A DNA stretch of 64,000 nt from Eledone cirrhosa. Its lineage: Eukaryota. The notes beneath the pieces were generated by a model. The model did no database searches and was not told the origin of the DNA. It saw only the letters and a list, made by a program, of their open reading frames with translations. The translations under genes and the position numbers were made by a program. Positions 22,704-63,902 of the stretch are shown here, piece by piece (position 1 is the stretch's first letter; every line of letters starts with the position of its first letter). The DNA lies in the NCBI GenBank assembly GCA_964016885.1, contig OZ024762.1, positions 1,178,001 to 1,242,000 on the forward strand, written 5' to 3'.

Positions 22704-23033
22704 GCACATGTTACTACCTAATTTTCAAATCTTTGCTGTTTATAAACAAAGCCTGCTTTGTATCTTTCTCTATATATATCTCTCTAGGGCGGGTAAAATT
22801 CCCGAGATCCATGGACGAGTTCTCTCCAGCAGTCTCTGTCCCTCATTATTGCTGCCATGTCCTGCATCTCCAACAGACCAGTGTCTGTCCTTAGGGCAAC
22901 AACATACATTAACCTTGGTCTTCCTCTTCCAGCGTGTCCATGCAGGGGCTCCCACAGAACCATGGAGAGTCTATATATATATCGACCATTTTATTTTTTT
23001 ATTTACTTATTTTTGATTTTGCTCTTTCCGCAG

Positions 23034-29009: not shown

Positions 29010-29638
29010 GTAAATATAGAGTTTTATGGTTTAATTGTTTTAATATCTACATCTGTAACACCTTCATATGTTACTGCTTTAGTTAAATATGTCGTAGATT
29101 GCAATTCAGAATGAGAAAATGTTCGTTGTTTTGCTTAATTGTGGTTTGTTGTTGTTTAGGTTGGTGCGTGAGTTAATGTTTTAGTCTGTCATGATGACAC
29201 AATATATATCTGTTGTTTAATATAGTATAACTGTTTTAACCAAGATGTCCTTTTAAGTGTGTCTTTAACAATATATATAATATATATATTGTTTAATATA
29301 GAAATGGCTTCTACGGGACTAGAACTGTTTCATTCGAAGGAAGTCATCGGGGCTTTCTTGATTATTCAATTCCAGTATTGGCAATAATGGAATTGTATAA
29401 TCAAGACCGTAGCGGTATGTCATATATCAAATCGTATATTTTGTCTGATGAGGACGTACTGAAAAAAAAACACAGTACCTTTAAAATATATATAATAAAG
29501 TATATATTTTGATTATAAGAATATTTTTCATTTGTTAATATTTTGAATAATATATATATATATATATAATGCTCAGTATTTTATACTTGGAGCTTAATAA
29601 TTACAGGGTTTCAATAAGAGTTATTAACTCTAATTTTC

Positions 29639-29670
<32 letters not shown>

Positions 29671-29675
<5 letters not shown>

Positions 29676-30115
29676 ATTGAAGTTTCCGTTGAAAATTGAA
29701 AAGTCATAGGAGTGAAGAGTGCTCTATGTAAGTTACAGAGCAAAATTTAATGTATAATAAACAATACAATATAATTACCTCATTAACAGAGGTTTCCCGA
29801 ATAAGACGAATACAAGAAATGTCTGACGAACGAATGCGGACGTTTCTTGTATTCGTCTTATTCGGGAAACCGCTGGTAATCAGGTAATTATATTGTATTG
29901 TTTATTATACATTATATATATATATATATATATATACACATTATTTCTGAAGTAGAGAAGACGTATGTATATGTTCTTACTATGATAATTTGTAATATAT
30001 TTTACATCAATAATAGAATGGACATTCGGGGAACTACCCCCCAGAAACGATCGTAAAATAATGAGTTTTACTATGAATTAACCGTTTTTTGTTTAATTTC
30101 ATTGTTTTCACTATT

Positions 30116-30165
<50 letters not shown>

Positions 30166-30342
30166 GTATAATAAACAATACAATATAATTACCTCATTAC
30201 CAGAGGTTTCCCGAATAAGACGAATACAAGAAACGTCCGCATGCGTTCGTTAGACAAGGCAATTAAATTTAGCTCTGTAACTTACATAGAGCACTCTTCA
30301 CTCCTATGACTTTTTCAATTTTCAACGGAAACTTCAATACTT
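29671..30342. mobile_element. Cluster of hammerhead-bearing short repeats (Penelope-LTR/retrozyme-like) between (TA)n tracts
   Basis: Cores at 29823 (+, CTGACGA..GAAA CCGCTGG TA), 29947 (+, CTGAAGT..GAAA CGATCG TA with 8-bp stem I) and 30253 (-, CTAACGA..GAAA CCTCTGG TA with 7-bp stem I). 29672-29913 and 30162-30342 are inverted copies of one ~180-bp unit. Confidence 0.65.
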
Positions 30343-32882: not shown

Positions 32883-33039
32883 ATCACAATATGCAGACTA
32901 ATGAAATACTTGCTTTAAATATCCATAACATGGATTTGAAAGTTTATTCCCCCATATTAAATACACTGGAATATGACCAAACTGAGGATTTTTGGAAACG
33001 TTTTGTCAATTTGTTGTGTAAGATGAAATTTCGCATCAG
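32883..33039 (+). CDS. MALT1: MALT1-like exon 2 (death domain)
   Basis: DHNMQTNEILALNIHNMDLKVYSPILNTLEYDQTEDFWKRFVNLLCKMKFRIS; AG|GTGAGA, phase 2. Confidence 0.8.
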
Positions 33040-33114
33040 GTGAGATTCAGAAATGTTTTCAGTTTTCTTTCTCTTTAATATATTCAGTAAATTGGCAGAG
33101 TTTTTTTTATGGGA

Positions 33115-33470
33115 TACTGTTGTCCCCTGGTATTTGTGGGGAGTTATGTTCCTGGAGCACCCGCGATGAGTGAAAAACCGCGAATATTGGACGTGGTCCA
33201 TAAAAATTTCTATAAACCTCAAAACATAACATAAAATATAGGCCAGCAAATATGGTATATTGTTATTAATAATTTAGCGTGAAAAAGCGTGAAAAAATTA
33301 TATATTGTCATGAAAAAATTCATTAAAAAATCACTGAAAATATTTACGATTCTGCGAATATGCGGTGGTTTCCACGAACTATTAGTTAGGTTGAAAGGAA
33401 AATTCTGCGAATAACCAGGACCACAAATGGTGGGATCGCGAATGCCAGATGATGATGATATACACAGTAT
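33115..33470. mobile_element. Tigger/pogo-like MITE
   Basis: Terminus resembles Tigger (TGTCCCCTGGTATTTGTGGGAGTTATGTTCC...CCGCGA). Confidence 0.5.
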
Positions 33471-33842
33471 ATCATCATCATCATCATTTTACATCCGCTG
33501 TTCCCTGCTTGCAAGGGTGGGACAGGTCCTATTCAGCACAGCATCTCTCCACTTGCCACGGTCCTTCGTCATCTCCTCTGTGAGTTTCAGCGATCTGAGG
33601 TCTGCTCTCACCACCTCAGCTCATGTTTTTCGTGGTCTTCCTTCTACTGGGATTTCTTGGCACTTCTTTACCCAGCGGTTGTCCTCCATGCGCATCACAT
33701 GTCCATACCATCTCAGCCTTCTCTCCTGCACACCACAACTTATCCCTCTGATACCCAGTTTCTCTCTCAACTCGTCTATTCTTATATTATATTCTGACAG
33801 GGGCAGTGGTGATTTAATTCTATTTTTATTTTTATTTTTCAG

Positions 33843-34009
33843 TCCTCAAGAATTCAATAAAATTATCCACGAAGGTAACAAATCTGGAAACACTGTGGCA
33901 CAAAAAATGTTCAATTTTTTGTCCCCAAAAGCATTTACTGTCCATCACCTTCTGCTGATTCTCAACGAACTGAAACTGGAGAAACATGTCAAAGCTCTCA
34001 GAGAATATG
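33843..34009 (+). CDS. MALT1: MALT1-like exon 3 (death domain)
   Basis: PQEFNKIIHEGNKSGNTVAQKMFNFLSPKAFTVHHLLLILNELKLEKHVKALREY; 167 nt, phases 2/1. Confidence 0.85.
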
Positions 34010-34875
34010 GTTGGTGCCCTTGTTTTGGTCTTTAGTTGGCTTTTTTCCTTCTCCTCCTCCTCATCATCGTTATTATTATCACCACCACCACCACTTTCAT
34101 CATACTCATTACTATCACCACCACCACCACCACCACCACCACTTTCATCACCATCAGTACCACCACCACCACCACCACCATCACCTTCACATCATCATTA
34201 CCATCACCACCACCTTCATCACCATCATCATCATTATCATCATTGTTTTTACGTCAGCTTTTCCACGCTTGCACGGGTTAGACGGGTCCTTCTCAGCACA
34301 GCATCTCTCCACTCGCCGCATTCCTTTGTCTTCTCCTCTGTGAGTCTCAGTGATTTGAGGTCAGCTCTGACCACTTCTGCCCAGGTCTTCCTTCGTCTAC
34401 CTCTACTGTGGCTTCCTTCCAATGATTCTTTCCTGAGACATTCTAACCACATGTCTATAGTATTAGAGAAGTAGTGGCTCTACCTGGAGTGACTCTCTCA
34501 TCTCCGAGCTACACACTTTATCGAGTAACGTTACGCCAAAGACCCTTCAAAGGAATCCCATTTCGGTTCCCTGTATTCACAATCGTATTCTTTCAGTCAT
34601 TACCCAAGGTAAGGGTTGGCACAAATAGTGAATTGAAGATAGCAAGCTTGGCTTTTACACCTACCCCCCTTCTTTCTGGCTTTTACACCTACCTCCCTTC
34701 TGGCTTTTACACCTACCTCCCTTCTGGCTTTTACACCTACCTCCCTTCTGCCTTTTACAACTACCTCCCTTCTGGCTTTTACACCCACCTCCCTTCTGGC
34801 TTCTCCTTCCTTCTGATTACTAAATGCTGAAGTTGGCGCATTACTGCACCAGCCTTTTGCAATTCTTGCCCTTAA

Positions 34876-35167
34876 CCCTTTAGCATTTAAACCAGCCGTA
34901 TCCGGCCAGATGTATCTCACCTCTTTCTGTTCAAACCAGCTGTAACTGGTCGTTCATACCTACATTAAGGTATTGTTCTCAAAATAAATGACATCAAAAT
35001 CTTGTAGTTTGATATTATATGAAATAATTATGTAAGATAAAGCCTTTACTGTGAAAATACAATAGTATATATAGAGTAATGTAAATGTTATGTGAGATAT
35101 TATGTGAGGTAAAGCCTTTACTGTGAAAATACAATAGTATATATAGAGTAATGTAAATGTTAAAGGG
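34876..35167 (+). mobile_element. piggyBac-type MITE copy with internal duplication
   Basis: TTAA|CCCTTTAGCATTTA...TAAATGTTAAAGGG|TTAA with two internal 72-bp units. Confidence 0.7.
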
Positions 35168-35242
35168 TTAAGTGCAAACATATATTTGAAACTCAAAAGT
35201 TGTTTCCCTTTGTTTTTAAATTAAAATATTTCTGATTGACAG

Positions 35243-35429
35243 CCAAAATTCCACATGAAGCCGTGCAAATCGTCGTTCAACCAAAGCAACCTGGAAAACT
35301 AAAAGATGGAGATACACTTCACCTGTGTGTTGTTGGAAGCGGGTTTCCTTATCCACGTTACCAGTGGTTTAAAAATGATGATGCTATTGAAGGGGCCACC
35401 AATTTTGAATTAGTTATACCCAAAATAAG
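35243..35429 (+). CDS. MALT1: MALT1-like exon 4 (Ig-A first half)
   Basis: VQIVVQP...TLHLCVVGSGFPYPRYQWFKND; 187 nt, phases 1/2. Confidence 0.9.
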
Positions 35430-35545
35430 GTGACTACGTTTTTTAAATTTCACTTATTTAAATTCCATCATCATCAATTCTTATTTGTTGTGCTCATCAT
35501 CATGATTATTATTATTATAAGATCTTATATTCACTGATGAAAATA

Positions 35546-35762
35546 TGGCGGTGGATTGGCAGTAAATGGTAGAGCGTCGGACACCCTGCTTCACGGCATA
35601 GAATTACGGCCCTTTACGTTCTGAATTTAAATCCTGTCGAGGTTAACTTTGCCTTTCATCCTTACAGGGTCGATAAAATAAAGTACCAGTAAGGCACTGG
35701 GGTCGATTTAATCAACTCCCCCCCCCCATTGCGGGAAGTGTGCCTATAGTAGAAACAATTAT
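35546..35762 (+). mobile_element. tRNA-derived SINE, family 1
   Basis: GGCGGTGGATTGGCAG head, CCTTTCATCCTTACAGGGTCGATAAAATAAAGTACCAG core and ATT tail. Copies at about 25-235(-), 250-410(-), 675-840, 6300-6545, 6605-6770, 8005-8095, 13170-13340, 27480-27615 and 63280-63670(-). Confidence 0.75.
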
Positions 35763-35865
35763 TGTTGTTGTTGTTGTTATGTTTATTATTATTGTTGTTG
35801 TTGTTATGTTTATTATTGTTGTTGTTGTTATGTTTATTATTGTTGTTGTTGTTGTTGTTATCTAG

Positions 35866-35954
35866 TATGGAAGAGGAAGGGAATTATTCCTGCAGATTAC
35901 ACAACAGCAGAACAAGTGTGGTCCTGTCTCACGTCATTCCTGTCTTTGTCAACT
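35866..35954 (+). CDS. MALT1: MALT1-like exon 5 (Ig-A second half)
   Basis: MEEEGNYSCRLHNSRTSVVLSHVIPVFVN; 89 nt, donor GTAAGT. Confidence 0.9.
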
Positions 35955-35957
35955 GTA

Positions 35958-36950
35958 AGTATACACTATATATACACTATATATACACTATATATACACT
36001 ATATACACTATATATACACTATATATACACTATATATACACTATATATACACTATATATACACTATATATACACTATATATACACTATATATACACTATA
36101 TACACTATATACACTATATATACTATATACACTATATACACTATATACACTATATATACTATATACACTATATATACACTATATATACACTATATACACT
36201 ATATATACACTATATATACACTATATATACACTATATACACTATATATACTATATACACTATATATACACTATATATACACTATATATACACTATATATA
36301 CACTATATATACACTATATACACTATATACACTATATATACACTATATATACATTATATATACACTATATATACACTATATATACACTATATACACTATA
36401 TACACTATATATACACTATATATACACTATATACACTATATACACTATATACACTATATATACATTATATATACATTATATATACACTATATATACACTA
36501 TATATACACTATATATACACTATATACACTATATATACTATATATACACTATATATACACTATATACACTATATACACTATATACACTATATACACTATA
36601 TATACACTATATATACACTATATACACTATATACACTATATATACACTATATATACATTATATATACACTATATATACACTATATATACACTATATACAC
36701 TATATATACACTATATACACTATATATACTATATACACTATATACACTATATACACTATATACACTATATATACTATATACACTATATATACACTATATA
36801 TACACTATATATACACTATATACACTATATATACACTATATATACACTATATATACACTATATATACTATATACACTATATATACACTATATACACTATA
36901 TATACTATATACACTATATACACTATATATACTATATATACTATATACAC
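35958..36950. repeat. (TATATACAC)-type simple repeat
   Basis: About 1 kb of 10/12-bp units directly after the exon 5 donor. Confidence 0.95.
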
Positions 36951-37095
36951 TCTACACACTGTAACTATACACACACACACTCATGTGAGAGGTGTTAGGA
37001 TGTTGGAGGTGTTTAGAGGGTAACACTACTAGATGTATGGCTTCTACCTGTAAATTGGTGTAAATTGCAATTAAAGGTGTTTGTTGGTGTTTCAG

Positions 37096-37244
37096 CTTTC
37101 AAGATTCTGCAGTTTTCTCCGTCTCAAATCCTCCAAGAAGGAGACAGGCTCCACTTATGGTGCCATGCTGCAAATAATGTCTCTCAAGTGTTGTATAGAT
37201 GGTTCAAAGATGGCCAACTGGTTTCTAACTCAAAGGATCATATT
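37096..37244 (+). CDS. MALT1: MALT1-like exon 6 (Ig-B first half)
   Basis: FKILQFSPSQILQEGDRLHLWCHA...YRWFKDGQLV; 149 nt, phases 1/0. Confidence 0.9.
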
Positions 37245-37737
37245 GTAAGTAGAAATATATGTCACAACTTATCACCATCATCTTCACCTTCACCAGCACC
37301 ATCATCATCATCACCAGCACCAACATCATCATCATCACCAACATCATCACCATCACTGTCACCACCACCACCACCTTCACCATCATCATCATCACCACCA
37401 CCATCACCATCATCATCATCAACAACATCACCACCATTTGAGGCAATATTGGTCGGGAGATCGTGTCTCAACCTTACAGAAGTGTCCCTGACAGGTTTTC
37501 TACGGCTGGAGGCCCTTCCTAACACCGACCACACCACATTACAGTGTGGCAGACTGGGTAACACACCATTGTAACATATATTATTTACAATTTACGTGTT
37601 GGCAGGTCTCTCTGGAAATAGGGTTTGGGTGGGGGGGGGGGGGGCACTGAGGGTATTATGAAGCTGTGACGAATGGAGAGATGCTGTGCTGAAAATGACC
37701 CGTCCCACCCTTGAAAGCAGGGAAAAGCGGGCATAAA

Positions 37738-37777
<40 letters not shown>

Positions 37778-37969
37778 GGATGAGGGAGGAGCGGTGGTGG
37801 CTCGAAAAGTTTCAGTACCTCTGCCTTACCACAACTGAACAGTCCTATCGACAACCAGTTTACAGAGTGTACTGGGTGCATTTTTCTTGGCATCAACGCT
37901 AGGGAAGGAATATTAGGGCTTTTGCTGTTCTGTACCAATTAATATTTGATTTCTTTTTTTTTTTTCCAG

Positions 37970-38072
37970 AAAGAGAAAGTTTCCATTCAAGACTCTGGTA
38001 TATATTTGTGTGAAGTGATCGGCAATCAAGGCGCTATACACAGTGAGAAAATAACTATAAATGTTTCACAAA
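37970..38072 (+). CDS. MALT1: MALT1-like exon 7 (Ig-B second half)
   Basis: KEKVSIQDSGIYLCEVIGNQGAIHSEKITINVSQ; 103 nt, donor GTGAGT. Confidence 0.9.
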
Positions 38073-38369
38073 GTGAGTTTTATTAGTACTCAATAATCTT
38101 TCAATTTTGGTTTTATTAACTTTGTTGTATATCATTTAACCCTTTATTAAACTGGTCGTAACCGACCAGAATTCTCTCACCCCTTTCTGATCAAACCTGT
38201 CATATCCGGCCAGAATTTTCTCACCCCTTTCTGATCAAACTGGCCATAAACGGCTGCTCATACTGATGTTAAGGTATTGTTCGCAAAATGAATAATAGCA
38301 AAATCTCATAGCTTCGATATTATGTGAGAATATAATAGTAAATATAGAGTACTATAAATGTTACGAGAT

Positions 38370-39032
38370 ATCATGTGAGATATTATGTGAGGTAAAGCCT
38401 TTACTGTGAAAATACAATAGTATATATAGAGTAATGTAAATGTTATGTGAGATATTATGTGAGGTAAAGCCTTTACTGTGAAACTACAATAGTATATATA
38501 GAGTAATGTAAATGTTATGTGAGATATTAGGTGAGGTAAAGCCTTTACTGTGAAACTACAATAGTATATATAGAGTAATGTAAATGTTATGTGAGATATT
38601 AGGTGAGGTAAAGCCTTTACTGTGAAAATACAATAGTATATATAGAGTAATGTAAATGTTATGTGAGATATTATGTGAGGTAAAGCCTTTACTGTGAAAC
38701 TACAATAGTATATATAGAGTAATGTAAATGTTATGTGAGATATTATGTGAGGTAAAGCCTTTACTGTGAAACTACAATAGTATATATAGAGTAATGTAAA
38801 TGTTATGTGAGATATTAGGTGAGGTAAAGCCTTTACTGTGAAAATACAATAGTATATATAGAGTAATGTAAATGTTATGTGAGATATTATGTGAGGTAAA
38901 GCCTTTACTGTGATAATACAATAGTATATATAGAGTAATGTAAATGTTATGTGAGATATTATGTGAGGTAAAGCCTTTACTGTGAAAATACAATAGTATA
39001 TATAGAGTAATGTAAATGTTATGTGAGATATT
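38370..39032. repeat. 72-bp minisatellite inside a MITE
   Basis: About 9 tandem units of GTGAGATATTATGTGAGGTAAAGCCTTTACTGTGAAAATACAATAG...; similar arrays at 42155-42610 and 26341-26580 (60-bp unit). Confidence 0.9.
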
Positions 39033-39049
39033 ATAATAATAATAATGAA

Positions 39050-39600
39050 ATTATTGTGTAAAGTGCTCAGGTGCACTACGACTCGTCAATATAGTACATA
39101 GAATAATACACAAATGCCAGGGAAGTACATGTTTGTATGTGTTAGCTGTAGTGTTGGCGGATCTCGGGAAGCATGGAGGCCTTAAAGGATGCAGTGTCTC
39201 GACAGCTAACAACTGATGCAGGTAGTTTGTTCCATGCTTCAGCAACTCTGAGCGTGAAAAAATGTTTCCGAAAGTCATGGGAACTGTGCTGTTTTCTTAC
39301 TTTGTGGGCATGTCCACGTGTGGTAGACACATGGAAATCGAAAAGGCACTCAGGGTTGTTGTTGGCAACATGGTTAACAATTTTGTGGGTGTTTACCAAG
39401 TCAGTTGCCAGGCGTCGGAGCTTCAATGAATCCATGCCCAGGGAAGCAAGGCGCTCAGAGTATGGTAGATGCCTGATGGAGGGTATTCGCTTGGTTGCAC
39501 GTCTCTGAACAGTTTCCAGGCGGTCAATGTCCTGAGCAAGATAGGGGTTCCAGACTGGTGATGCAAATTCTAAGTGTGGTCGCACCATAGCTGTATACAG
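39050..39600 (-). mobile_element. CR1/L2-clade LINE 3' fragment (RT C-terminus)
   Basis: LYTAMVRPHLEFASPVWNPY...QRRATK...YSERLASLG...TRGH...FFTLRVAEAWNKLP. Confidence 0.85.
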
Positions 39601-39730
39601 ATTGTTGTGACAATGTATGCAATTTATGTAATTTATACAATTTTTGCAGTTTATATGAGATAGAGTCATTAAACACTTATCCATTTATCTTTTATTTTTC
39701 TTTAATTTTTTACCCATGTCATTGTTACAG

Positions 39731-39862
39731 ATACACTTGAGATAGTAACCCAGCCAAGGTTCTCAATGGTCCAGTTAGATGGTGTTGCTTTATTTCTGTG
39801 TGAAGCGAAAGGTCCTTCTGAGATTCAGTACCAGTGGTATAAGGACAACATCATTCTTCCAA
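39731..39862 (+). CDS. MALT1: MALT1-like exon 8 (Ig-C first half)
   Basis: TLEIVTQPRFSMVQLDGVALFLCEAKGPSEIQYQWYKDNIILP; 132 nt, phases 1/1. Confidence 0.9.
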
Positions 39863-40775
39863 GTAAGGATAACTTTTACTTTGTTTTTTATTGCCATTAT
39901 TCCTTTGTATTTTTGTTGTTATTTAAACATTCTTTTCTCAAAGACTGGCATCATCATCATCACCATTTAACGTCCATTCTTCTACACTAGCATGGGTTAG
40001 ATGGGTTGTCCTGTTGTGGGGCAATACTAGGTCAGGTGACCATGTCTTGCACATACAGAACTGATTTTGGCTTGGTTTTTACAGCTGGATGCCTTTCAAA
40101 ATGCCAACCTCATTTACAGTGTGGACTGGGTGCTTTTTGTCGTGACACCTACATGACCACTTTACAGTGTGGACTGGGTGCTTTTTGTCGTGACACCTAC
40201 ATGACCACTTTACAGTGTGGATTGGGTGTTTTTTTATTTAGTTCAAACAGTACACTCTTTCTGTCAAAGTGGTTGGCATGAGGAATGGCATCTGGCTCCC
40301 CTCAGCCACCATAACACCATAATTCACTATACACACTCAGCACTTGTGCTCAACCACTCATGTACAACCACTCATGCTGAACCACTCAAGCTCAGCCAAC
40401 CATGCACAACCACTCATGCTCAAGCAAAATATGGAATGTATGAGCAGTCTATATAATTTATGTGATGTATGCAGTCCATATAATTTATGGAATGTAAGCA
40501 GTCGATATAATTCATGTGATGTATGCAGTCAATATAATTTACATAAGTTTATGTAATCTATGCAGTCTATATAATTTATGTGATGTATGTAGTCTATATA
40601 ATTCATATGATATATACAGTCTATATAATTTACATAAGTTTATGTAATCTATGCAGTCTATATAATTTATATGATGTATGTAGTCTATATAATTCATATG
40701 ATATATACAGTCTATATAATTTACATAAGTTTATGTAATCTATGTAGTTTAAACTAACTTTGTTTAAATGTTCAG

Positions 40776-40922
40776 ATGAAACGAAACCTGAACTGAAAAT
40801 CCATGTGACATGTGACAGTTTCCGTGGCACTTACTTCTGTGTTGTGTCATGTCAAAACATGAAACGGGCCTCAGACTTTGCTCATCTTCAGATCAAGGCT
40901 TTTCCTTCAAATAAATATGTAG
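40776..40922 (+). CDS. MALT1: MALT1-like exon 9 (Ig-C second half)
   Basis: ETKPELKIHVTCDSFRGTYFCVVSCQNMKRASDFAHLQI; 147 nt, donor GTAAGT. Confidence 0.9.
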
Positions 40923-41130
40923 GTAAGTGTCATTTAAGGGGGAGACTTCTTTGACTCTCTCTCTCTATCTCTCTCTCTTGCTCTCTCTCTCATATATATA
41001 TATAGATGTGTGTGTACATATATATGTGTGTGTGTGTGTTTATATATGTGTGTGTGTATATATATGTGTATGTATATATATGTGTGTGTATATATATATG
41101 TGTGTGTATATATATGTGCGTGTATATATA

Positions 41131-41165
<35 letters not shown>

Positions 41166-41170
41166 GCATA

Positions 41171-41219
<49 letters not shown>

Positions 41220-41299
41220 GCATATATATATATGTATATATGCATATATATACACACATGTATATATACACACACACACATATATATATATGCATATAT

Positions 41300-41334
<35 letters not shown>

Positions 41335-41339
41335 TATAT

Positions 41340-41370
<31 letters not shown>

Positions 41371-41586
41371 CACACACATATATATATACACACATATATA
41401 TACACACACATATTATACACACACACATATATATATATATACATACATATATATTATACACAAACACACACATATATATACATACATACATATATATATA
41501 TATTTATATATGTGTGTGTTTATATATTTAAAGAAACTGTTTCTATTCAGTTTAATTTTTAAATTGTTTCTCCTGTCTGCCATCAG

Positions 41587-41974
41587 CCACTGACAAGATT
41601 GCTCTCCTGATCGGCAACGAGGATTACAGAAGCGAAAGAAAATTAAAAGCAGCCCGAAACGATGTGAAATTACTTGCGGACATTTTCCAGAGACTTGGTT
41701 TCAAAGTCCTCTCCCTTTTAAACCTGACATTAACCGAGATGAAGATGGCTGTGTACCATTTTGTGGAGCTCCTTAATAACGGAGTATATGGCGTGTTTTA
41801 CTACGCAGGACATGGCTTTGAAATAAGTGGAGACCCGTATTCGTATCTGTTGCCTGTCGATGCACCAAATGGGGCTGACATAAATGTCTGTCTCTCGGCT
41901 CAGAAAGTTCAGCAGTTAATGTTGGAAAGAAATCCTTCATTGTGTTGTTTAATTCTTGATATTTGTCGAACTAT
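41587..41974 (+). CDS. MALT1: MALT1-like exon 10 (paracaspase catalytic domain)
   Basis: [14 protein letters not shown]...FYYAGHGFE (catalytic His)...YLLPVDAP...LILDICR (catalytic Cys); 388 nt. Confidence 0.96.
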
Positions 41975-42671
41975 GTAAGTTGAAGAAGATTCTGGTAACC
42001 CATTTTGTTTTTTTAACCCTTTAGCATTTAAACTGGCCGTATCTGGCCAGAATTCTCTCACCCCTTTCTCTTCAAACTGGCCACAACCGGCTGCTCATAT
42101 TTATGTTAAGGTATTGTTCTCAAAATAAATAATATCAAAATCTCATAGATTCGATATTATGTGAGGTAAAGCCTTTATTGTGAAAATACAATAGTATATA
42201 TAGAGTAATGTAAATGTTATGTGAGATATTATGTGAGGTAAAGCCTTTACTGTGAAAATACAATAGTATATATAGAGTAATGTAAATGTTATGTGAGGTA
42301 AAGCCTTTACTGTGAAAATACAATAGTATATATAGAGTAATGTAAATGTTATGTGAGATATTATGTGAGGTAAAGCCTTTACTGTGAAAATACAATAGTA
42401 TATATAGAGTAATGTAAATGTTATGTGAGATATTATGTGAGGTAAAGCCTTTACTGTGAAAATACAATAGTATATATAGAGTAATGTAAATGTTATGTGA
42501 GATATTATGTGAGGTAAAGCCTTTACTGTGAACATACAATAGTATATATAGAGTAATGTAAATGTTATGTGAGATATTATGTAAGGTAAAGCCTTTACTG
42601 TGAACATACATAACACTTCTCAGTAAATATAGAGTAACAAAGGGTTGTCTTTCTTCCTTACACTATTTCAG

Positions 42672-42746
42672 CTATGAAGACTCCAAGTACTATAGTCCTC
42701 CAATACCTACGAGAGCTAACACCACTTCAGTCTATATGTATGCCAC
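42672..42746 (+). CDS. MALT1: MALT1-like exon 11
   Basis: YEDSKYYSPPIPTRANTTSVYMYAT; 75 nt, phases 2/2. Confidence 0.88.
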
Positions 42747-42838
42747 GTAAGTGTACACTTACAGTGTGTTTTACACTTACACACTACACCACATCACACT
42801 ACACTGCACCACAGCACACTACACCACACTACACCACA

Positions 42839-43550
42839 CCACGCCACGCCACGCCACGCCACGCCACGCCACGCCACGCCACGCCACGCCACGCCACGCC
42901 ACGCCACGCCACGCCACGCCACGCCACGCCACGCCACGCCACGCCACGCCACGCCACGCCACGCCACGCCACGCCACGCCACGCCACGCCACGCCACGCC
43001 ACGCCACGCCACGCCACGCCACGCCACGCCACGCCACGCCACGCCACGCCACGCCACGCCACGCCACGCCACGCCACGCCACGCCACGCCACGCCACGCC
43101 ACGCCACGCCACGCCACGCCACGCCACGCCACGCCACGCCACGCCACGCCACGCCACGCCACGCCACGCCACGCCACGCCACGCCACGCCACGCCACGCC
43201 ACGCCACGCCACGCCACGCCACGCCACGCCACGCCACGCCACGCCACGCCACGCCACGCCACGCCACGCCACGCCACGCCACGCCACGCCACGCCACGCC
43301 ACGCCACGCCACGCCACGCCACGCCACGCCACGCCACGCCACGCCACGCCACGCCACGCCACGCCACGCCACGCCACGCCACGCCACGCCACGCCACGCC
43401 ACGCCACGCCACGCCACGCCACGCCACGCCACGCCACGCCACGCCACGCCACGCCACGCCACGCCACGCCACGCCACGCCACGCCACGCCACGCCACGCC
43501 ACGCCACGCCACGCCACGCCACGCCACGCCACGCCACGCCACGCCACGCC
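42839..43550. repeat. (ACGCC)n pentanucleotide microsatellite
   Basis: About 140 perfect units flanked by ACACC/ACACT variants, filling MALT1 intron 11. Confidence 0.97.
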
Positions 43551-43633
43551 ACACCACACCACACCACACTACACCGCACTGCACTGCACCGCCCTACCCT
43601 ACCCTACCCTACACTGTCTTATCTTATGTACAG

Positions 43634-43755
43634 GTCCCGGGGCCAGAGTGCCTTTGAGCCCCTCAATGGTGGAATGGGTAACTTTGTCCAGACTCTCAAG
43701 AAATATTTGGATTCTACCGAAAGTATAGAAATAATGTTTGGCAACGTACGACAAG
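43634..43755 (+). CDS. MALT1: MALT1-like exon 12
   Basis: SRGQSAFEPLNGGMGNFVQTLKKYL...; carries the conserved AFE motif; 122 nt. Confidence 0.9.
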
Positions 43756-43802
43756 GTAAGAGAGACAGTTTTTACTTTACAATAACAACAACAATAATAA
43801 TA

Positions 43803-44065
43803 AAAATGCCTTCTAACTGATGTATCAATCCCCACAGATGACAATATATCTTCCAAGGAAATAGAGAAACTCTCCAAATATAAAGATCTAGAGATAGAAA
43901 TAACTTGAATGTGGAAAATGAAAACAGAAACAATAGCTATAATAATAGGAGCTCTGGGGATGATAAAAAAACACAGACAAATCATCATCATCATCATCAT
44001 ACATAACCAAAACCCCAGGACTTACAAATATAGACGGCATACAAAAGATAGTACTACTAGGTACT
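43803..44065 (+). mobile_element. R2/R4-type non-LTR element restriction-like endonuclease remnant
   Basis: KCLLTDVSIPTDDNISSKEIEKLSKYKDLEIEIT*MWKMKTETIAIIIGALG, with an in-frame stop. Confidence 0.75.
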
Positions 44066-44908
44066 GTATATATATTATATAGAGTACCCCAGGACTTACA
44101 AATATATGCAACATACAGAAGATAGCACTACTAGGTACTGTATATATATTACATAGAGTACCCCAGGACTTACAAATATATACAACATACAAAAGACAGC
44201 AGTACAAGGTACTGTGTGTGTATATATATATATAATAGTAATAATAATAAATGTGAAGACTAAAATCCGAAGAGGGTTCGATAAGGATAAATATATATCG
44301 AATATATAAGAACCGTAGAGCAAATATTTATTAAAATAACAGATTAAAGTTTAAGCAAAGAATCGCTGCTTTCACCCTTAACGGGATCTTCTGAAACTAA
44401 AAAAATCAATCTGTGAACGCAGAAGTAAATATTTCGAAAAATATAGTATACAGTTCTATAACTGCTATAGATCAGGTCTGATAGTATACAGTTCTATAAC
44501 TGCTATAGATCAGGTCTGATAGTATACAGTTCTATAACTGCTATAGATCAGGCCTGATAGTATACAGTTATATAACTGCTAATATCAGACAATATGTCAA
44601 TATTATCAACTCTCCAAAACAATGATATGAATAGGTAAAATAATTTGACTTTGTTGTTTTTATTTTCATTGTTAAATTAACATCGTATGTCAGACTCTGT
44701 ATCTAAGGAATTAACTCAGTGGAACCCGGAACCTTTCTATGGATTTCACTGGGTTACTCGCTGAGTTCTATCTACGGTACAGACCCTACCACCAAGGGTA
44801 GACCACACTGAAAAAAAAAAAAATATATATATATGAAGTATTTCCATCAGAAGGGGAAAGGAGAGTGCTCTATGTAAGCTACAGAGCTATTTAGTTATGT
44901 AATAAACA

Positions 44909-44964
44909 TCATTCTGATGAGTGATTTCAGACATCTCTGTCTTCGTGAAACCTTTGGTAAATGG
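44909..44964 (+). ncRNA. Type I hammerhead ribozyme, intact core (MALT1 intron 12, sense)
   Basis: TCATT/AATGG; CTGATGA 44914-44920; stem II GTGA..AGAC/GTCT.TCGT; GAAA 44947-44950; CC-TTT-GG; UA. Confidence 0.7.
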
Positions 44965-45038
44965 AATAATTGTCTTATGTTGTTTATTACATAAATATAT
45001 ATATATATAGCTAAATAATGTTTTCTTGTTTGTTTTAG

Positions 45039-45209
45039 AACTTGCTAAATCAAGTGAAAGTAAAGATCTTGAGAAGAGCAACAGTCACCAGAATCCGGAG
45101 CTCCACAGTAATTTAGCCAAGTTTGATATTTCATTGGCAGACAGAATAGATTCAACTAATCACACCAAAGAATACAATGAAAGGAACATGTTGTGGGTAC
45201 AAGCAAACA
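45039..45209 (+). CDS. MALT1: MALT1-like exon 13
   Basis: ...QNPELHSNLAKFDISLADRI...ERNMLWVQAN; 171 nt, donor GTGAGT. Confidence 0.9.
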
Positions 45210-45410
45210 GTGAGTAAACTAGGGAACATGTTGTGGGTACAAACAAACAGTGAGTAAACTAGGGAACATGTTGTGGGTACAAGCAAACAGTGAGTAAACT
45301 AGGGAACATGTTGTGGGTACAAGCAAACAGTGAGTAAACTAGGGAACATGTGGGTTCAAGCAGTGAGTAGTCCAGGGTACATGCTGCAGGTACAAACAGT
45401 GAGTAAACCA
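45181..45410 (+). repeat. 40-bp tandem repeat spanning the MALT1 exon 13 donor
   Basis: AGGGAACATGTTGTGGGTACAAGCAAACAGTGAGTAAACT x4 plus 2 degenerate units. Confidence 0.9.
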
Positions 45411-45757
45411 GGGACTTTTGCAGAGAAATTTCCAAGGAATTCACTACAAAACAGTCCATTTCTCTCTCTCTCTCTCTCTGTCTTTGTTGGGTAAAATGAG
45501 AGGACAGGTTGTGTTCCTTCAATGAGATCAGATGGGAGATAGTAGTACCCAACTCACTCACTAAACTGTACAAACTCTGCCCACATAACAAACTGACAAG
45601 TCAGCTACCCAGAAGCAGCCCACCCGACTGACAACAATGGACTACGATCGCTTCTGAGTCAAAAACAAAAAAAAAACAGTTTTTTCATTCTCTGTTTTTT
45701 CCTCCTTAAAGCCTCTTGGAATGAGTTTACCATCATTCCTATAGTATATAACTATTA

Positions 45758-45828
45758 TGCAATATACACCTGATGATGTCACCAGGTTCATACGTAACCT
45801 GCCCACTGAAATGTGTATAGTGTTTGCA
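45758..45828 (+). ncRNA. Type I hammerhead ribozyme, intact core (MALT1 intron 13, sense)
   Basis: Bulged stem I TGCAA(TAT)ACAC/GTGTTTGCA; CTGATGA 45770-45776; AGGTT/AACCT in an imperfect stem II; GAAA 45808-45811; TGTGTA; UA; AATAAA follows. Confidence 0.65.
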
Positions 45829-46510
45829 GTAATAAACATTTGAAGTAATACAACCAGTCCGGCCTCCTCTCATTTTTACCCTATAATATGATATTTAACT
45901 CCATTCCCGCACCACCAACAAGATTCAACATCAAAAATGGAGCAGATGTATAACGTTGAGTGCTTTCCTGATATTACATCATGGTTAACATTGAAGAATG
46001 ACCAATTCTACTCAGTGGTGAACCACCAAATTTAAGCGTATATATATATATATATATGACACAACAGTCCACACTGTAAGGTGGCCATGTAGGAGACACG
46101 GTGGAAAGGCTCCCAGTCGACACTGTAAATGTGGTTGGTGTTAGGAAGGGCATCCAGCTGTAAAAAAAACCTGCCAGAGACGCTTCCGTGTTAGCAAGAC
46201 ATGCTCTCCCGACCATTCCTGCATCAAATGGAACAAAACCGACTAACCAATGCTAGCGTGGAAGATGGACGTTAAACGATGATGATGATATATATATATA
46301 TATATAGTTAATAAATGAAACTAAACAAAAAAAAACACAGGAATACGAAAATACACAGTTATATTTGTTTCACACTTGGGGTAAGTGGATGAGGGTTCAA
46401 TGTTTCAGACAGAAGTCCTTCATCGGGAGGAAGGATGGGGTGAGTGAGGAGGGGTTGAGAGGTTGAACAGAGGCAAATAAAATAAATATCTATGTTTTGT
46501 TTCTCTCCAG

Positions 46511-46668
46511 AGTTACAGAAGACAATGTACCTGGATATTAAGGAGTTCCAGGCCAAGCTAAAAGTGGAATTTTCTGCTCCGTTTTCTAACGTGATGTCTA
46601 TTACGGTAACTGTTGTCGACTCTGGAATTGTCCCCAACTGCTACGCATGGATAGCAAATATACCATCG
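46511..46668 (+). CDS. MALT1: MALT1-like exon 14 (C-terminal Ig)
   Basis: LKVEFSAPFSNVMSI (FSNVM motif); 158 nt. Confidence 0.9.
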
Positions 46669-47337
46669 GTGAGTTAACATCATCATCATCACCACCACCA
46701 TTACCACTACTACCACTACCACCACCACCACTACTATCACTACCACCACTACTACCACCACCACTACCACCACCACCACTACTATCACTACTATCACTAC
46801 CACCACTACTACCACCACCACTACCACCACCACTACTACTATCACTACCACCACTACTATCACTACCACCACTACTACCACCACCACTACTACTACCACT
46901 ACCACCATCACCACCACTACTACCACCACCACCATCACCACCACCACCACCACCACTACCACTACCACCACTACTACCACCACCACCACCATCACTACTA
47001 CCACCACTACCATTACCACCACTACTACCATTACTACCACCACCACCACCACCACCACCATCACTACTACCACCACTACCATTACCACCACCACTACCAC
47101 TACCACCACTACTACCACCACCACCACCACCACTACTACCACCACTACCACCACTACTACCCTACTACCACCACTACCACCACTACCATTACCACCACCA
47201 CTACCACTACTACCACCACCACCACCACTACTACCACCACTACCACTACCACCACCACCACTACTACCACCACTACCACCACTACCACTACTACCACCAC
47301 CACCACTGTGATGTAACAATTGTTGTTTCTGTTGTAG

Positions 47338-47421
47338 ACTTTGACGGCTGATAAAGCCCAGGTGTTACAAGATGACAAGAAAAGAATCAAAACTGACATC
47401 CGTGACCTACAGAAATTACAG
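47338..47421 (+). CDS. MALT1: MALT1-like exon 15
   Basis: TLTADKAQVLQDDKKRIKTDIRDLQKLQ (LQKL motif); 84 nt, phases 0/0. Confidence 0.88.
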
Positions 47422-47522
47422 GTATTCTCCTTGTCATCATTGTTGTTGTTGTTGTTGTTATGTCTACTTTACCATAGGTTGTCATGGGTTCGTGTCGCAT
47501 TTACTGTTAGCCTTAGGTGTGG

Positions 47523-48340
47523 TTAACCCTTTAACCGGCTGAAACTGGCTGTAACTGGCTGTAACTGGCCACTCATACTGATGTTAACCCTTTAACTGGC
47601 TGTAACTGGCCACTCATACTGATGTTAACCCTTTAACCGGCTGTAACTGGCCACTCATACTGATGTTAACCCTTTAACTGGCTGTAACTGGCCACTCATA
47701 CTGATGTTAACCCTTTAACTGGCTGTAACTGGCTGTAACTGGCCACTCATACTGATGTTAACCCTTTAACCGGCTGTAACTGGCTGTAACTGGCCACTCA
47801 TACTGATGTTAACCCTTTAACTGGCTGTAACTGGCCACTCATACTGATGTTAACCCTTTAACCGGCTGTAACTGGCCACTCATACTGATGTTAACCCTTT
47901 AACCGGCTGTAACTGGCCACTCATACTGATGTTAACCCTTTAACTGGCTGTAACTGGCCACTCATACTGATGTTAACCCTTTAACCGGCTGTAACTGGCC
48001 ACTCATACTGATGTTAACCCTTTAACTGGCTGTAACTGGCTGTAACTGGCCACTCATACTGATGTTAACCCTTTAACTGGCTGTAACTGGCCACTCATAC
48101 TGATGTTAACCCTTTAACCGGCTGTAACTGGCTGTAACTGGCCACTCATACTGATGTTAACCCTTTAACTGGCTGTAACTGGCCACTCATACTGATGTTA
48201 ACCCTTTAACCGGCTGTAACTGGCCACTCATACTGATGTTAACCCTTTAACTGGCTGTAACTGGCTGTAACTGGCCACTCATACTGATGTTAACCCTTTA
48301 ACTGGCTGTAACTGGCCACTCATACTGATGTTAAGGTATT
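47523..48340. repeat. 37/47-bp tandem array derived from the MITE 5' end
   Basis: (TTAACCCTTTAACYGGCTGTAACTGGCCACTCATACTGATG)n with variable 10-bp duplication. Confidence 0.9.
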
Positions 48341-48597
48341 GTTTCCACCCCTGGACAGGACACCAGTACATCGCAGGGTTAAACCCCCAGCTATTACTGG
48401 TACTCATTTCCAGCTGAGTATACTGGAGCAATGTGAAATGAAGTGTCTTGCTCAAGAACACAACATAACACACAACCAGGTTTTGGAATTGAACCCTATA
48501 ACTATTATACTCACAGACCCTCCCCCCATTGTTAATTGAATTTTACTTATTTATTTATTTATTTATTCATTATTATTATTTTTTTTCCTTTTTGTAG

Positions 48598-48765
48598 GAT
48601 TCAATGCAGGTACAGATTCGGTTTAATTACACAGATGCCGGGGGTAGAGAGAGGTGCAAGCTGGAGAATTTAGACTTTGGCTTTCCGTTAGTTGCTAACC
48701 TTCATTTGTGGCACTTATCTACCCCCATGTTGGAAGTGGAGTATATTAAAAAGAAGAGGGAATGA
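48598..48765 (+). CDS. MALT1: MALT1-like exon 16 (terminal)
   Basis: [11 protein letters not shown]...[14 protein letters not shown]...KKKRE*. Summed CDS 2301 nt = 766 aa. Confidence 0.88.
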
Positions 48766-49610: not shown

Positions 49611-49888
49611 CAAAAGGCATATTCAATTTGTTGGTAATTCAACAAATATAAATGTTTATAACTGATTCAGAGCACTCAACAGGTTTTCTGGAGTATAATA
49701 TTCAATGATATTAAATAAATGGAAACTATATTTATAAAACCATATTTATTCTATTATATATATTTCAGGGTAGTACACTTTCATCAAATAAAATACGAAG
49801 TGTGTTTTATAAATTTTGACATAACCAAGGAAAATATACCTTAACGGTTCAAGTTTTCCTTGGATAGTGTATATTGTATATATATATG

Positions 49889-50917: not shown

Positions 50918-52560
50918 CATCATCATCATCATCATTTTACGTCCGCCCCTCCCTGCTTGCAAGGGTGGGACGGATATATATATATATCATCATCATCATC
51001 ATCATCATCATCGTTTAACGTCCATCTTCCACGCTTGCATGGGTTTGGACGGGAATTTTCCCACTTCCCGTCCAAATCCATACACTGCCGCCTACACTGT
51101 ACCACCATCACTACCACCTACACAACACCACCACCTACACAGCACCACCACCACCACTACCACCTACACTGCCACCTACACAGTACCACCACCACCACTA
51201 CCACCATCACTACCACCTACACAGCACCACCACTACCACCATCACTGCTGTCTACACACCACCACCACCATCATCTACACCAAAGCCACCACCACCATCA
51301 CGACCACCCACCTTACCACCACCACCATACTACCACTACACCACCACTGCCATACCACCACCACCATACCACCACCTCCACACCACCAACACCACCACCA
51401 CACCATACCACCATACCACCACCACCACCACCAGAACATACTGAATTCTTCACATGCCAAGCCATAACAAGATTCCTAGTAATATTGCATCACTTGTCTA
51501 CCTCCTCCCCCTCCCTTAGTTCTCTTTGCTCACCCTCAAATGAGGGGAGGGGTCGTAGGATGGTAAGACAGGGCAATAGTGGGGTGGTGGTGGTGGTGGT
51601 TGTGGTGGTGGTGGCAGTGGTTGTGGTGGTGGTGGTGGTGTTGTAGCTAAACACATACCATAGCATCACCAACAACTCATAACTCTGCCATTACCATCAC
51701 CACCATCATCATCAACATCATAATCATTACCATCACCATCATCATCATCATCAACATCAACATCATAATCATTATCATCAACATCATAATCATTATCATC
51801 ATCACAACCCCAACCATCATCATCAGCATCACCATTTTATGTCTATTTTCCCCATGGTTTGTTCGATGCCCTACCTAACACCAACCACTTTACAGAGCGT
51901 ACTGGGTGCTGAGACAGCTCTACTGGGCAGGTCATATCACATGCCTGAACGACTCTGGGATGCTAAAGGCAGTTTTCTACAGTGAACTACGTCAAGGTAA
52001 GTGAAACCAAGGGACCCCTCGGAGACACTTCAAGCGACATCTGGTCCAAGACAATATTGATCACAGCAAATGGGAACAATGAAGGTGCATGGCTCAGTGG
52101 TTAGAGCATTGGGCTTGCAATCAAAAGGTTGTGAGTTCAATTCTCAGACCGGGTGATGTGTTGTTTCCTTGAACAAGACACTTTATGTCACATTAATCCA
52201 GTTTACTCAGGTGTAGAAATGAGATTATAGGGACTGGGGTCCCTATCATTAAATTACTCCAAGACACCTCCAACGAGATATACCTTGAAGGAGGCCAGCT
52301 AAAGCTGCACAGGTGGGAACTGTGGCAACAACAATGGGAACACCTGGCAGAGGAATGGAGAGTGACCATAAAAATAGCTGCAGCCAGCTTTGAAGAGGAC
52401 AGAAAGGTGTCAACTGATGACAGACATTAAGGAAGAAAGCTGTCACCCAACCAACTCACCAAGTACAGAACCTGCCCCAACTGTAGCAGAGATTGCAGGT
52501 CCACGATTGGCCCCTACAGCCACCCCAGAGTGGGAGACTGCACGGAACAGGACAACCATC

Positions 52561-58970: not shown

Positions 58971-60332
58971 TCACCATCCTCCGGGGAAACGCCTTCTCCA
59001 TTCTGTCCCTCGGGGCCACCGCCCCTTTTTTATACATTTCCGTCCCCTTTTATATTTTTATTTTGTTCATATTACAGACCCCCTCCTCCCTCAGCTCCGA
59101 ATAGCCCCTCTAACACCTGTTACTGTTATTTTCTTATATCTACCTGTCTGCCTATCTCTCTCTCTCTCTCTCTCTCTGCCTATCTCTATCTCTATCTCTC
59201 TACCTGTCTCTCTATCTCTCTACCTATCTATTTCCTACACATAAACATATGTAATATATATATATCTATCTCTATCTATCTACGTCTCCCCACCTCTCTC
59301 TCTCTCTCTCTCATCACATTCTTTCTTCCTATCTTCCATTCTTTCCTTCCATTCTTTCCTTCTCCAAGTTTATCTTCTTCTTTTCCTTCTTCTTTCTGTC
59401 GTTCACAACTTTCCCCCCCCCCTCCTCCCCCTCTATCTTCCTTGTTTTATTCTTATTTTTTATTCTTTATCTTTTAATACTTTTCTTTAGTTTTCGATAT
59501 TTTCGTTCGTTCGTTCTTTCTTTCTTTCTTGCTGGTATTCCACGCACTCTCTCTCTCTCTCTTTGTCTCACCTTCTTTCTCACTCTCTTTTTCCCCTTTT
59601 CCTTCCCCTTCTCTCTACGTCTCATCGTCTTTCTCTCTCTCTCTGTTTTACTTTCTTTCTCTTTCTCACTCCTTTTTCTTTCCCTTTCTCTCTGTCTCAC
59701 CATCTCTCTTCCCTCCCTCCTCCTATTACTTTGTCTCTCCTTTCCTCCTCTCTATCTGTCTCTCTCTACCTCCTCTCTCTGTCACTCCTACATCTCTCTC
59801 TCTTACTTTGTCTCTCCTCTCCCTCTCTCTATCAGTCCTACATTTCTCTCCTATCCCTACCACCACTACCACTATATACTTACATTACTCTATTACAAAT
59901 ACTCATGGATTTGGTATGTACTGCCTCTTGCATTCTTATTAAACATGTGTATACATATATATATATACACACACACACACACATGTGTGTATGTATAAAT
60001 ATATATATATATGTGAGTGTGTCTGTGTTTGTATGTATATATATATATATGCGTGAGCGCATATGAGTGAGTGTATACGTTTATATATATTTATGTGTTT
60101 GTGTATATATATATATATATATTATTCAAAATATTAACAAATGAAAAATATTCTCATAATCAAATTATATACTTTATTATATACATTTCAAAGGTATTGT
60201 GTTGTTTTTTCAGTACGTCCTCATCAGACAAAATATATGATTTGATATATGACATACTGCTACGGTCTTGATTATACAATTCCTGTATATATATATATAT
60301 ATGCGTAAGAGTGTACGAGTTTGTTTATATAC

Positions 60333-60813: not shown

Positions 60814-61016
60814 CATGTGTGTGTATATATATATATATATATGCATGTGCTTGTATGTATATAAATGTGTTTGTAGGTGTATAATTATGTATATGTATGT
60901 TTATTTGTATATCTGTGTATATATGTATGGATATGTTTATTAATATATATATATTCCCCTGTAAGTACATAACTGTACTGTTTTATAATTGCAAATCTTG
61001 ATATGCACACACACAC

Positions 61017-61047
<31 letters not shown>

Positions 61048-61092
61048 TATATATATATACACACATATATATATATATATATCATGTTCTCC

Positions 61093-61163
61093 TGTTTTAT
61101 CTGATGAAAACACAAATATTATTGCATGATGATGTTTGTTTTTGAAATGCGCATAATAAAATA
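61093..61163 (+). ncRNA. Type I hammerhead ribozyme, intact core
   Basis: Stem I TGTTTTAT/ATAAAATA; CTGATGA 61101-61107; stem II about 12 bp; GAAA 61144-61147; palindromic stem III ATGCGCAT; cleavage dinucleotide UA 61154-61155. Confidence 0.85.
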
Positions 61164-61269
61164 CATGGAACACCTTTAACCATCTTTTGATCTTATATTA
61201 TATATATATATATACATGCACATATATATATATATATATGTATACACACACACACACACACACATATAT

Positions 61270-61334
<65 letters not shown>

Positions 61335-61459
61335 CATACACACACACACACACACATATACACATATATACACACACATATATATATATACACACACACA
61401 TATATATATACACACACACTTATATATACACGCACACACACACATACACACATATATAG

Positions 61460-61532
<73 letters not shown>

Positions 61533-61699
61533 TATATACACACACACACATATATACACACAGGCACACATATATACACACACACACACACACACATATA
61601 TATACACACACACACACATATATATACACACACATATATATACACACACACACACACATATATACACACACACATATATACACACAGACACACATATAT

Positions 61700-61764
<65 letters not shown>

Positions 61765-63096: not shown

Positions 63097-63902
63097 ATGT
63101 CTGTAGTTATGACTAAATCAATCGCGGTAGTTTGTATAATGTGGTTAGAGCCGGTTAGTTACTATGTGAATAATGTTGTGTGGGTGGATGTGGTTGGTGC
63201 TAATGTCGGCTGGCTATGTTGCATAACATAGCAACCTCCGCATGGATAATGTAACTAGAATATAATTGTTTTTGTTTTAGGAACAAGGCCATCAAATTTA
63301 GGAGGGGGAGGGGAAAAATCGATTAAATCGACCTCATCGACCCCAGAGTATTACTGGTACTTTATTATATCAACCCCCAAAATAATGGTTTCTGATTTTG
63401 GCACGAAGCCAGCAATTTGGGGGAAGGGAGGGGAAGTCGACTAAATCCACCCCAGAGTATTACTGGTACTTTATTTTATCAACCCTCAAATATATTTCTT
63501 ACTTATGTAGGCACAAGGCCAACAATTTTGGGCCCAGGAGGGGAATGTTGATTAAATCAACCCCAGTGTATTACCGGTACTTTATATTATCGACGTCGTA
63601 AGGTTGAAAGGCAAAGTTAACCTCGGCGGGATTTGAACTTGGAACGTAAAGGTCCATAGCTCTGTGCTACAAAGCACAATAATGTAATATAATATTGGTT
63701 TTATAGGATTATAATAAATTTCTTTCATATACATACATGCACACACATTCACACAAGCACGTGAATATACGTATGCATATATACCTATTACACCTTAATA
63801 CCCACATACACCCACACACAAAATATATGGCTGATGCTTATATATATATACGCACACATCATCTCACAAATCACAACAAATGCTATAACTTTTGTCGCAT
63901 CA

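Follow-up and report, generated by a model that had tools for sequence, protein, structure and literature searches.

A dimer-compatible type I hammerhead motif in a dispersed repeat of the octopod Eledone cirrhosa and its candidate Penelope-like origin

The window analysed here, that is, the whole stretch of 64,000 nucleotides from Eledone cirrhosa (GCA_964016885.1, contig OZ024762.1, positions 1,178,001 to 1,242,000), is AT-rich animal DNA crowded with microsatellites; all coordinates below refer to it. A MALT1-like paracaspase gene of about 13 coding exons occupies 32891–48756 on the plus strand, and its caspase-domain exon (41556–41975) is 88–90% identical to the MALT1 homologues of Octopus vulgaris and O. 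bimaculoides and 78% identical to that of Argonauta. Other coding features are the ribosomal protein L15 exons (6044–9618, plus strand), an intronless WD40 gene (1093–2622, minus strand), presumably UTP18-like, and a single open frame of 666 amino acids (22913–24913, plus strand) with a DUF3987 domain (E 4.9e-25) and a Q/A-rich tract. Among the repeats, a 60/72-bp tandem family that often adjoins exons is found at 38373–39034, 42153–42610, 26344–26581, 9962–10106, and 35015–35162, a tRNA-like SINE head lies at 52090–52147 (plus strand; Rfam tRNA, 32.9 bits), and 63259–63676 holds a SINE-like multi-copy repeat that finds many matches across the window.

The subject of this report is a hammerhead motif whose core begins at 61101, on the strand of the MALT1 homologue and 12.3 kb beyond its last coding exon. 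A previous sequence-only reading had placed the motif antisense to a putative minus-strand gene; this finds no support, and the MALT1 homologue, on the plus strand, is the closest gene for which homology provides evidence. The only minus-strand candidate exon nearby (61931–61844) is an 88-nt, GC-richer island with splice-like ends. It matches no Pfam family, and its one match at E ≤ 0.001 among 1.84 billion proteins is a repetitive, unannotated protein of 573 amino acids (39%). As this homologue lacks credibility and no Pfam family is present, the candidate was not accepted as a gene.

The hammerhead forms part of a repeat remnant of 111 nt (61083–61193, plus strand), which includes about 38 nt past the cut and is the sole unmasked island between a (CA)n/(TA)n microsatellite on the left (61005–61082) and a (TA)n/(CA)n microsatellite on the right (61194–61764, from the sequence and the repeat mask). 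Judged from its sequence, 61085–61172 is a genuine type I hammerhead motif with an intact core, for which cleavage is predicted. The residues C3 U4 G5 A6 N7 G8 A9, G12 A13 A14, the pair A15.1–U16.1 and H17 are in place, and three helices surround the core with the open ends in stem I. Specifically, the catalytic segment C3–A9 (CUGAUGA) lies at 61101–61107, G12-A13-A14 at 61144–61146, and the stem III palindrome ATGCGCAT at 61147–61154, from A15.1 (61147) to U16.1 (61154). By the hammerhead consensus, A17 is 61155, so that the predicted cut falls 3′ of this residue and would leave a 5′-OH at A61156. The complete core, the self-complementary stem III and the position of the cut had all been noticed beforehand, and the present analysis bears them out.

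Ensemble folding also recovers the expected stem I, namely an 8-bp helix extendable by TGTTC/GAACA across an internal loop. The proximal helix pairs 61093–61100 with 61156–61163 through seven Watson–Crick pairs and one G·U (probabilities 0.79–0.96), and, beyond the internal loop, a distal helix of five pairs joins 61085–61089 to 61168–61172 (0.53–0.99), the 3′ strands and the loop between them thus covering 61156–61172. Stem II (61108–61143) had been described as about 12 bp. This is right for its upper part, but the full stem has 15 pairs, with three basal pairs, a C·U mismatch, 12 pairs, and a 4-nt loop; the pair probabilities are 0.86–1.0 in the upper part and about 0.5 in the three basal pairs. 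The base of the stem must also be corrected with respect to the earlier description, as it opens with A10.1–U11.1 and not with G–C. The G10.1–C11.1 pair missing here is highly conserved but not obligatory, and U–U is found at this position in natural active motifs, according to the accessible part of one study (PMC3088659). Since stem II does not have the canonical length of 4 bp, the canonical contact between loop 1 and loop 2 is unlikely in this hammerhead. The mean pair probabilities are still 0.77–0.89 with 30–250 nt of flank added. Among the six anchored copies in the window, this one ranks first (probability 0.90 for stem I and 0.52 for the base of stem II, against 0.60 and 0.31 for the runner-up), in line with its description as the best-formed.

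Stem III is a different matter. In the folded monomer its probability is 0.00, and forcing two pairs costs 2.9 kcal/mol. Two copies, however, cofold as a double hammerhead in which the stem I strands are exchanged and the palindromes form an intermolecular helix of 8 bp, which is the only setting in which this stem forms in the model. The gain over two monomers is −12.1 kcal/mol; when the six inner bases of the palindrome are permuted, 3 of 180 arrangements do equally well (permutation mean −5.1). At −41.1 kcal/mol, the active double hammerhead is 3.6 kcal/mol less favourable than the most stable cofold (−44.7), and half-dimerisation is reached near 10 nM RNA in the model. The short palindromic helix III is therefore, as far as the folding model goes, compatible with dimerisation. 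The proposal that the motif needs to dimerise thus finds backing in the zero probability of stem III in the monomer and in the favourable cofold, but the 2-nt loop III on which it had been based is better described as two pairs plus a palindromic tetraloop. At the locus, the only same-strand copy of the family within the window has lost G12 and lies at a distance of 31 kb, and, among the other families, the closest hammerheads on this strand are 15–16 kb upstream; the window extends 2.8 kb downstream of the hammerhead. A transcript spanning the locus would hold the monomer, given that the nearest sister is on the opposite strand and the same-strand partner is distant and lacks G12. On these grounds the copy is probably inert at its own locus.

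The motif had also been said to stand alone. Locally this is true, as the 111-nt island is isolated between microsatellites, but four relatives in the window share its fold. The nearest (60123–60283, minus strand), detected by self-comparison and by a strict type I descriptor, lies on the opposite strand about 800 nt away, and it has an intact core (C3 at 60227, A17 at 60178) and an 11-bp stem I. Self-comparison also revealed a copy at 29389–29549 (plus strand), 95% identical to the former across 161 nt, in which G12 is replaced by A; a 5′ inverted repeat (29356–29406) accompanies it, and none is seen by the same comparison at 61083–61193. A further sister with intact core (C3 at 27358, A17 at 27314) was found at 27294–27378 (minus strand) by the strict descriptor and a covariance model, and a decayed one, with C3 changed to U and a shortened stem II, at 49735–49807 (minus strand) by self-comparison and the covariance model. 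None of the five copies is in tandem arrangement within the 64-kb window. Between the two closest genomic sisters, six of eight differences are A/G changes.

The covariance model was built from these five members and refinds them by construction; it gives one further weak match, at 30178–30273 (E 0.18). In the five-member alignment, 98.8% of 82 cells are paired, compared with 38.6–64.0% in slid controls, and the proximal stem I reaches 100%. Changes on both sides are seen in 4 of 17 pairs, three of them in stem II. In stem II, all four undecayed members retain a mismatch as the fourth pair, and the pair 10.1–11.1 is G·U in three members and A–U in two, with G–C in none of the five. The support from covariation is modest, because only five related sequences are involved and because shuffles equal the covariation score in 7 of 500 cases and the count of doubly changed pairs in 41 of 500.

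A wider view of the family comes from public sequencing runs, whose contigs were aligned to 61083–61195 at 80% likeness. Three runs (X1, X2, and X3), which bear three organism labels and are of unrecorded kind, contain contigs matching 61083–61193: one in X1, 289 in X2, and 28 in X3, figures that are not copy numbers. The X1 contig matches 61083–61191 with one difference and continues past the end, and 172 of the 289 X2 contigs are less than 95% alike. In another run, X21, no contig aligned from about 35% of the run, which is uninformative either way; 21 of 24 run rows, which share a 0.26 fraction of the words, probably those of microsatellites, were left out. No run recorded as RNA was among those listed. 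The commonest variant, G61134A, turns a G·U pair of stem II into A–U. Among the rows displayed, loose ends with differing flanks begin at 61169, 61171, 61178, 61188, and 61192, as would be expected for dispersed insertions that end 14–37 nt beyond the cut site. Together with the relatives in the window, the matching contigs and their differing flanks indicate that 61083–61193 belongs to an octopod repeat family that is dispersed and high-copy. In addition, X2 and X3 contain loose ends before 61136, from a family variant in which the 5′ strand of stem I is kept and both the core and the stem II 5′ strand are apparently missing.

Other hammerhead-like motifs are scattered through the window. A second family, of the GAAACCnnnGGTA type, is present at 44893–44992 (plus strand), 30164–30341 (minus strand), and 29673–29912. 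Its member with an intact core, at 44914, sits just before the MALT1 homologue exon at 45044, and a degenerate core at 30253 is found within an extensive inverted duplication embedded in (TA)n, an arrangement typical of Penelope-like element (PLE) insertions. Another type I hammerhead (45752–45835, plus strand), with U·U at 10.1–11.1, lies 850 nt from 44914, sense to the MALT1 homologue and within one of its introns. At 4523–4734 (minus strand), a hammerhead-like motif combines CTGAAGA with a perfect ACGATCGT palindrome; it fails both the strict and the relaxed descriptor, and its 3′ part is repeated in inverted orientation at 4523–4584.

In DNA so rich in A and T, a motif of this type might be a chance match. 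In favour of this explanation, the folding energy of the 61101 motif is ordinary (z −1.68, with 12 of 200 shuffles equally good), its stems are largely A–U, and the Rfam hammerhead models give no match at the gathering score across the window, nor any among the 42 matches down to E 10 in 60900–61300. The snoRNA and miRNA matches that Rfam returns in the latter interval are weak, far under the cut-offs, and were discarded. Against it stand both shuffle nulls. The strict descriptor finds four motifs in the window (44914+, 61101+, 60227−, and 27358−), while 150 block-wise dinucleotide shuffles yield a mean of 0.027, with one motif in 4 of 150 and four in none, and neither the reversed nor the complemented window contains a match; with the relaxed descriptor there are seven motifs versus a maximum of one in 60 shuffles. 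A search of metagenomes with a core-plus-palindrome pattern points in the same direction: none of the 21 matches has a stem I of at least six pairs (the best has five), whereas the same pattern gives three matches in the window, with stems I of 8, 11, and 8 pairs. Viral contigs gave no match. Considering also that the sisters covary and that the family is multi-copy, a chance origin of the motif is refuted as far as computation can do so, and we regard it as exceedingly improbable.

Hammerhead motifs of this kind are on record by the thousands per animal genome. Among those described, the closest to the present family are those that PLEs carry in their pseudo-LTRs. Metazoan PLE hammerheads are massively single motifs, heterogeneous, with a long helix II or a small palindromic helix III, and they occur as opposite-strand pairs 100–700 bp apart; the one minimal hammerhead assayed was inactive as monomer and had low activity as dimer (PMC4209133, accessible part). 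The octopod family shares with them, as described there, the type I topology, the intact core, the short palindromic helix III, a helix II longer than canonical, the predicted dependence on dimerisation, the mostly single and dispersed copies in several heterogeneous families per genome, and opposite-strand neighbours within about 1 kb. It differs, as far as the same source describes these elements, in having A–U or G·U in place of G10.1–C11.1, in that, in its best register, no base is left unpaired between positions 9 and 10.1, in the dimensions of its helices (8–11 pairs in stem I; 15 pairs in stem II, with the fixed mismatch at pair 4), and in that no linked PLE open reading frame was found among the frames screened beside its copies in the window.

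Three other systems resemble the family in part. Animal non-LTR retrozymes (PMC7229834; bioRxiv 10.64898/2026.07.22.740005) are likewise non-coding and low in GC, with a type I hammerhead and a weak palindromic helix III; in contrast to them, the octopod copies are non-tandem in the window, the unit is shorter, and stem II is non-canonical. The double hammerheads of the newt and ASBVd type (PMC4209133, PMC3088659) similarly convert a palindromic stem III into a long helix on pairing, but their partner resides on the same multimeric RNA, whereas within the window the octopod locus has no intact partner of its family on the same strand. For the giant squid, 235 genomic loci of the Rfam hammerhead_1 family have been reported (PMC6962438); these are also dispersed in a cephalopod genome, but the Rfam models fail to detect the octopod family. 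Among the openly readable papers listed on octopus or cephalopod hammerheads, the octopod family is undescribed, although mollusc families may be included in the PMC4209133 supplements. Also for octopods, 31 recently active Penelope-like families have been reported in O. vulgaris, in a paper whose accessible main text carries no mention of ribozymes (PMC13282606).

By analogy, the 61101 motif would work like a PLE pseudo-LTR hammerhead, and the family is a candidate member of the PLEs. The origin that we consider probable is that of a solo, 5′-truncated remnant of a Penelope-like terminal repeat, or of a short non-autonomous element moved by a PLE, lying in (TA)n. Two hammerheads arranged in tandem in the parent element would exchange their stem I strands while their palindromes form a single helix III of 8 bp, and this double hammerhead would cut 3′ of A17, releasing unit-length RNA. 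The new copies would arise when uncut or re-ligated RNA is reverse-transcribed, as suggested by the presence of both sides of the scissile bond in each copy, and would be targeted to AT-rich DNA. A preference for AT-rich targets, a protein-assisted hammerhead, and the use of uncut RNA as the main insertion template are described in the available part of PMC11167929, and the last point agrees with family copies that span the scissile bond. The 61101 copy itself could cut only in trans, by meeting another molecule, and would most likely be inert, since no intact same-strand partner of its family lies in the window.

It is the architecture that connects the family with PLEs, because no PLE-type open reading frame was found beside the hammerhead loci: neither a PLE-type reverse transcriptase nor a GIY-YIG domain was detected in 150 of 159 open frames (at least 45 amino acids, within 3.5 kb of hammerhead-like loci). 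The only reverse transcriptase match is a fragment at 26775–27089 (E 0.00023, under the Pfam cut-off), whose motifs we take to be CR1-like. As regards architecture, the islands are short and 5′-truncated and end in (TA)n 38–55 nt past the cut site, inverted-repeat arrangements are seen at 29356–29406, at 29673–29912 with 30164–30341, and at 4523–4584 with 4647–4708, and several divergent hammerhead families adjoin within the window. Inverted 5′-truncated copies, tails, and microsatellite targeting are recorded for PLEs in the available part of bioRxiv 2021.04.23.441226. Several results speak against a Penelope-like origin, such as the absence of the G10.1–C11.1 pair of the published consensus from all five members, the silence of the Rfam hammerhead models, a covariation signal drawn from five related sequences and equalled by 7/500 and 41/500 shuffles, and an active double hammerhead that is 3.6 kcal/mol less stable than the best cofold.

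Part of the evidence would equally suit a monomer of a non-LTR retrozyme, produced by tandem transcription, hammerhead cutting, circularisation, and re-insertion. Such elements also have a type I hammerhead, a palindromic helix III, low GC, and no open reading frame; solo monomers exist, derived from pLTRs, and 8 of 9 dimers assayed were inactive (bioRxiv 2026.07.22.740005, available part). The cut site is included in each copy, which is what a circle-derived copy would show, and the X2 contigs are many. Nevertheless, a retrozyme monomer seems unlikely to us, as none of the five window copies is in tandem, the unit measures 111–161 nt compared with the 220–350 nt described (PMC7229834, available part), and stem II has 15 pairs instead of the canonical four. 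Hammerhead-bearing SINE-like elements are on record as well (PMC6765202, available part), and a schistosome-style element with its own pol III promoter would be short, dispersed, high-copy, and non-coding, like the present family. The island, however, starts only 18 nt before the core, the sole tRNA-like Rfam match in the window (52090–52147) is 9 kb away, and self-comparison reveals no common tRNA-like head in the sisters, which leaves little room for such an element. Still less probable, in our estimation, is the co-option of this copy by the host to cut or end one of its transcripts, for example a read-through of the MALT1 homologue. The copy does fold best in the window with an intact core, on the same strand as that gene, and the X1 contig reproduces 61083–61191 with a single difference and extends past the end; but a young repeat would yield near-identical contigs anyway, the last coding exon of the MALT1 homologue is 12.3 kb off, and the monomer lacks stem III, with half occupancy of the dimer calling for about 10 nM RNA in the model.

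One further aspect of the family emerges from the variants in X2. This run shows A>G at 61156, 61158, and 61163 and T>C at 61154 and 61157, each in 16–19 contigs (about 5–15% of depth), and none of the five in X3; the two other listed variants, G61134A and C61164T, are common to both runs. The loose ends of X2 contain clusters of changes: five A>G and one A>T within 21 nt from A61155 on (two contigs), five T>C only within 21 nt from 61140 on (seven contigs), and three T>C in the 8 nt before 61142 (two contigs). Under random placement of the changes, the probability of all hitting A would be 0.009 and that of all hitting T 0.001, values calculated after the clusters had been seen. A 5′ G precedes none of the 12 changed sites, compared with 12 of 80 A positions on both strands, which is a weak difference. 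These strand-pure clusters resemble ADAR hyper-editing of transcripts from both strands and are offered as a lead. In the accessible part of one study, hyper-editing amounts to more than one million sites in the octopus CNS, and Penelope is heavily edited in a lizard (PMC5625713). A bolder proposal, which we put forward as doubtful, is that both strands of the family are transcribed and undergo hyper-editing by ADAR, so that editing of A17 and of the stem I adenosines would switch the ribozyme off and the host's editing machinery would gate a retroelement ribozyme in octopods. Against editing, X2 is not recorded as RNA, X2 and X3 differ in organism label, and strain or subfamily differences may mimic its signature; genomic sisters also carry C (T>C) at 3′ positions of stem II, and A/G changes make up six of the eight differences between the two closest ones. 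The hyper-editing of repeats, including Penelope, is moreover already known from the same source. Among the matches to a search on hammerheads with ADAR or A-to-I editing of retrotransposons, judged by title and abstract, no paper dealt with the link.

As to the meaning of these observations, the single locus matters little. It adds a cephalopod family missed by Rfam, whose long stem II has R–U as its basal pair, and it illustrates the density of such motifs in an octopod, with at least seven of hammerhead type in 64 kb. The finding would matter more if the editing were true: should it be real in X2 and reach the cut site, it would connect the A-to-I editing of cephalopods with retroelement ribozymes in a way that can be tested.
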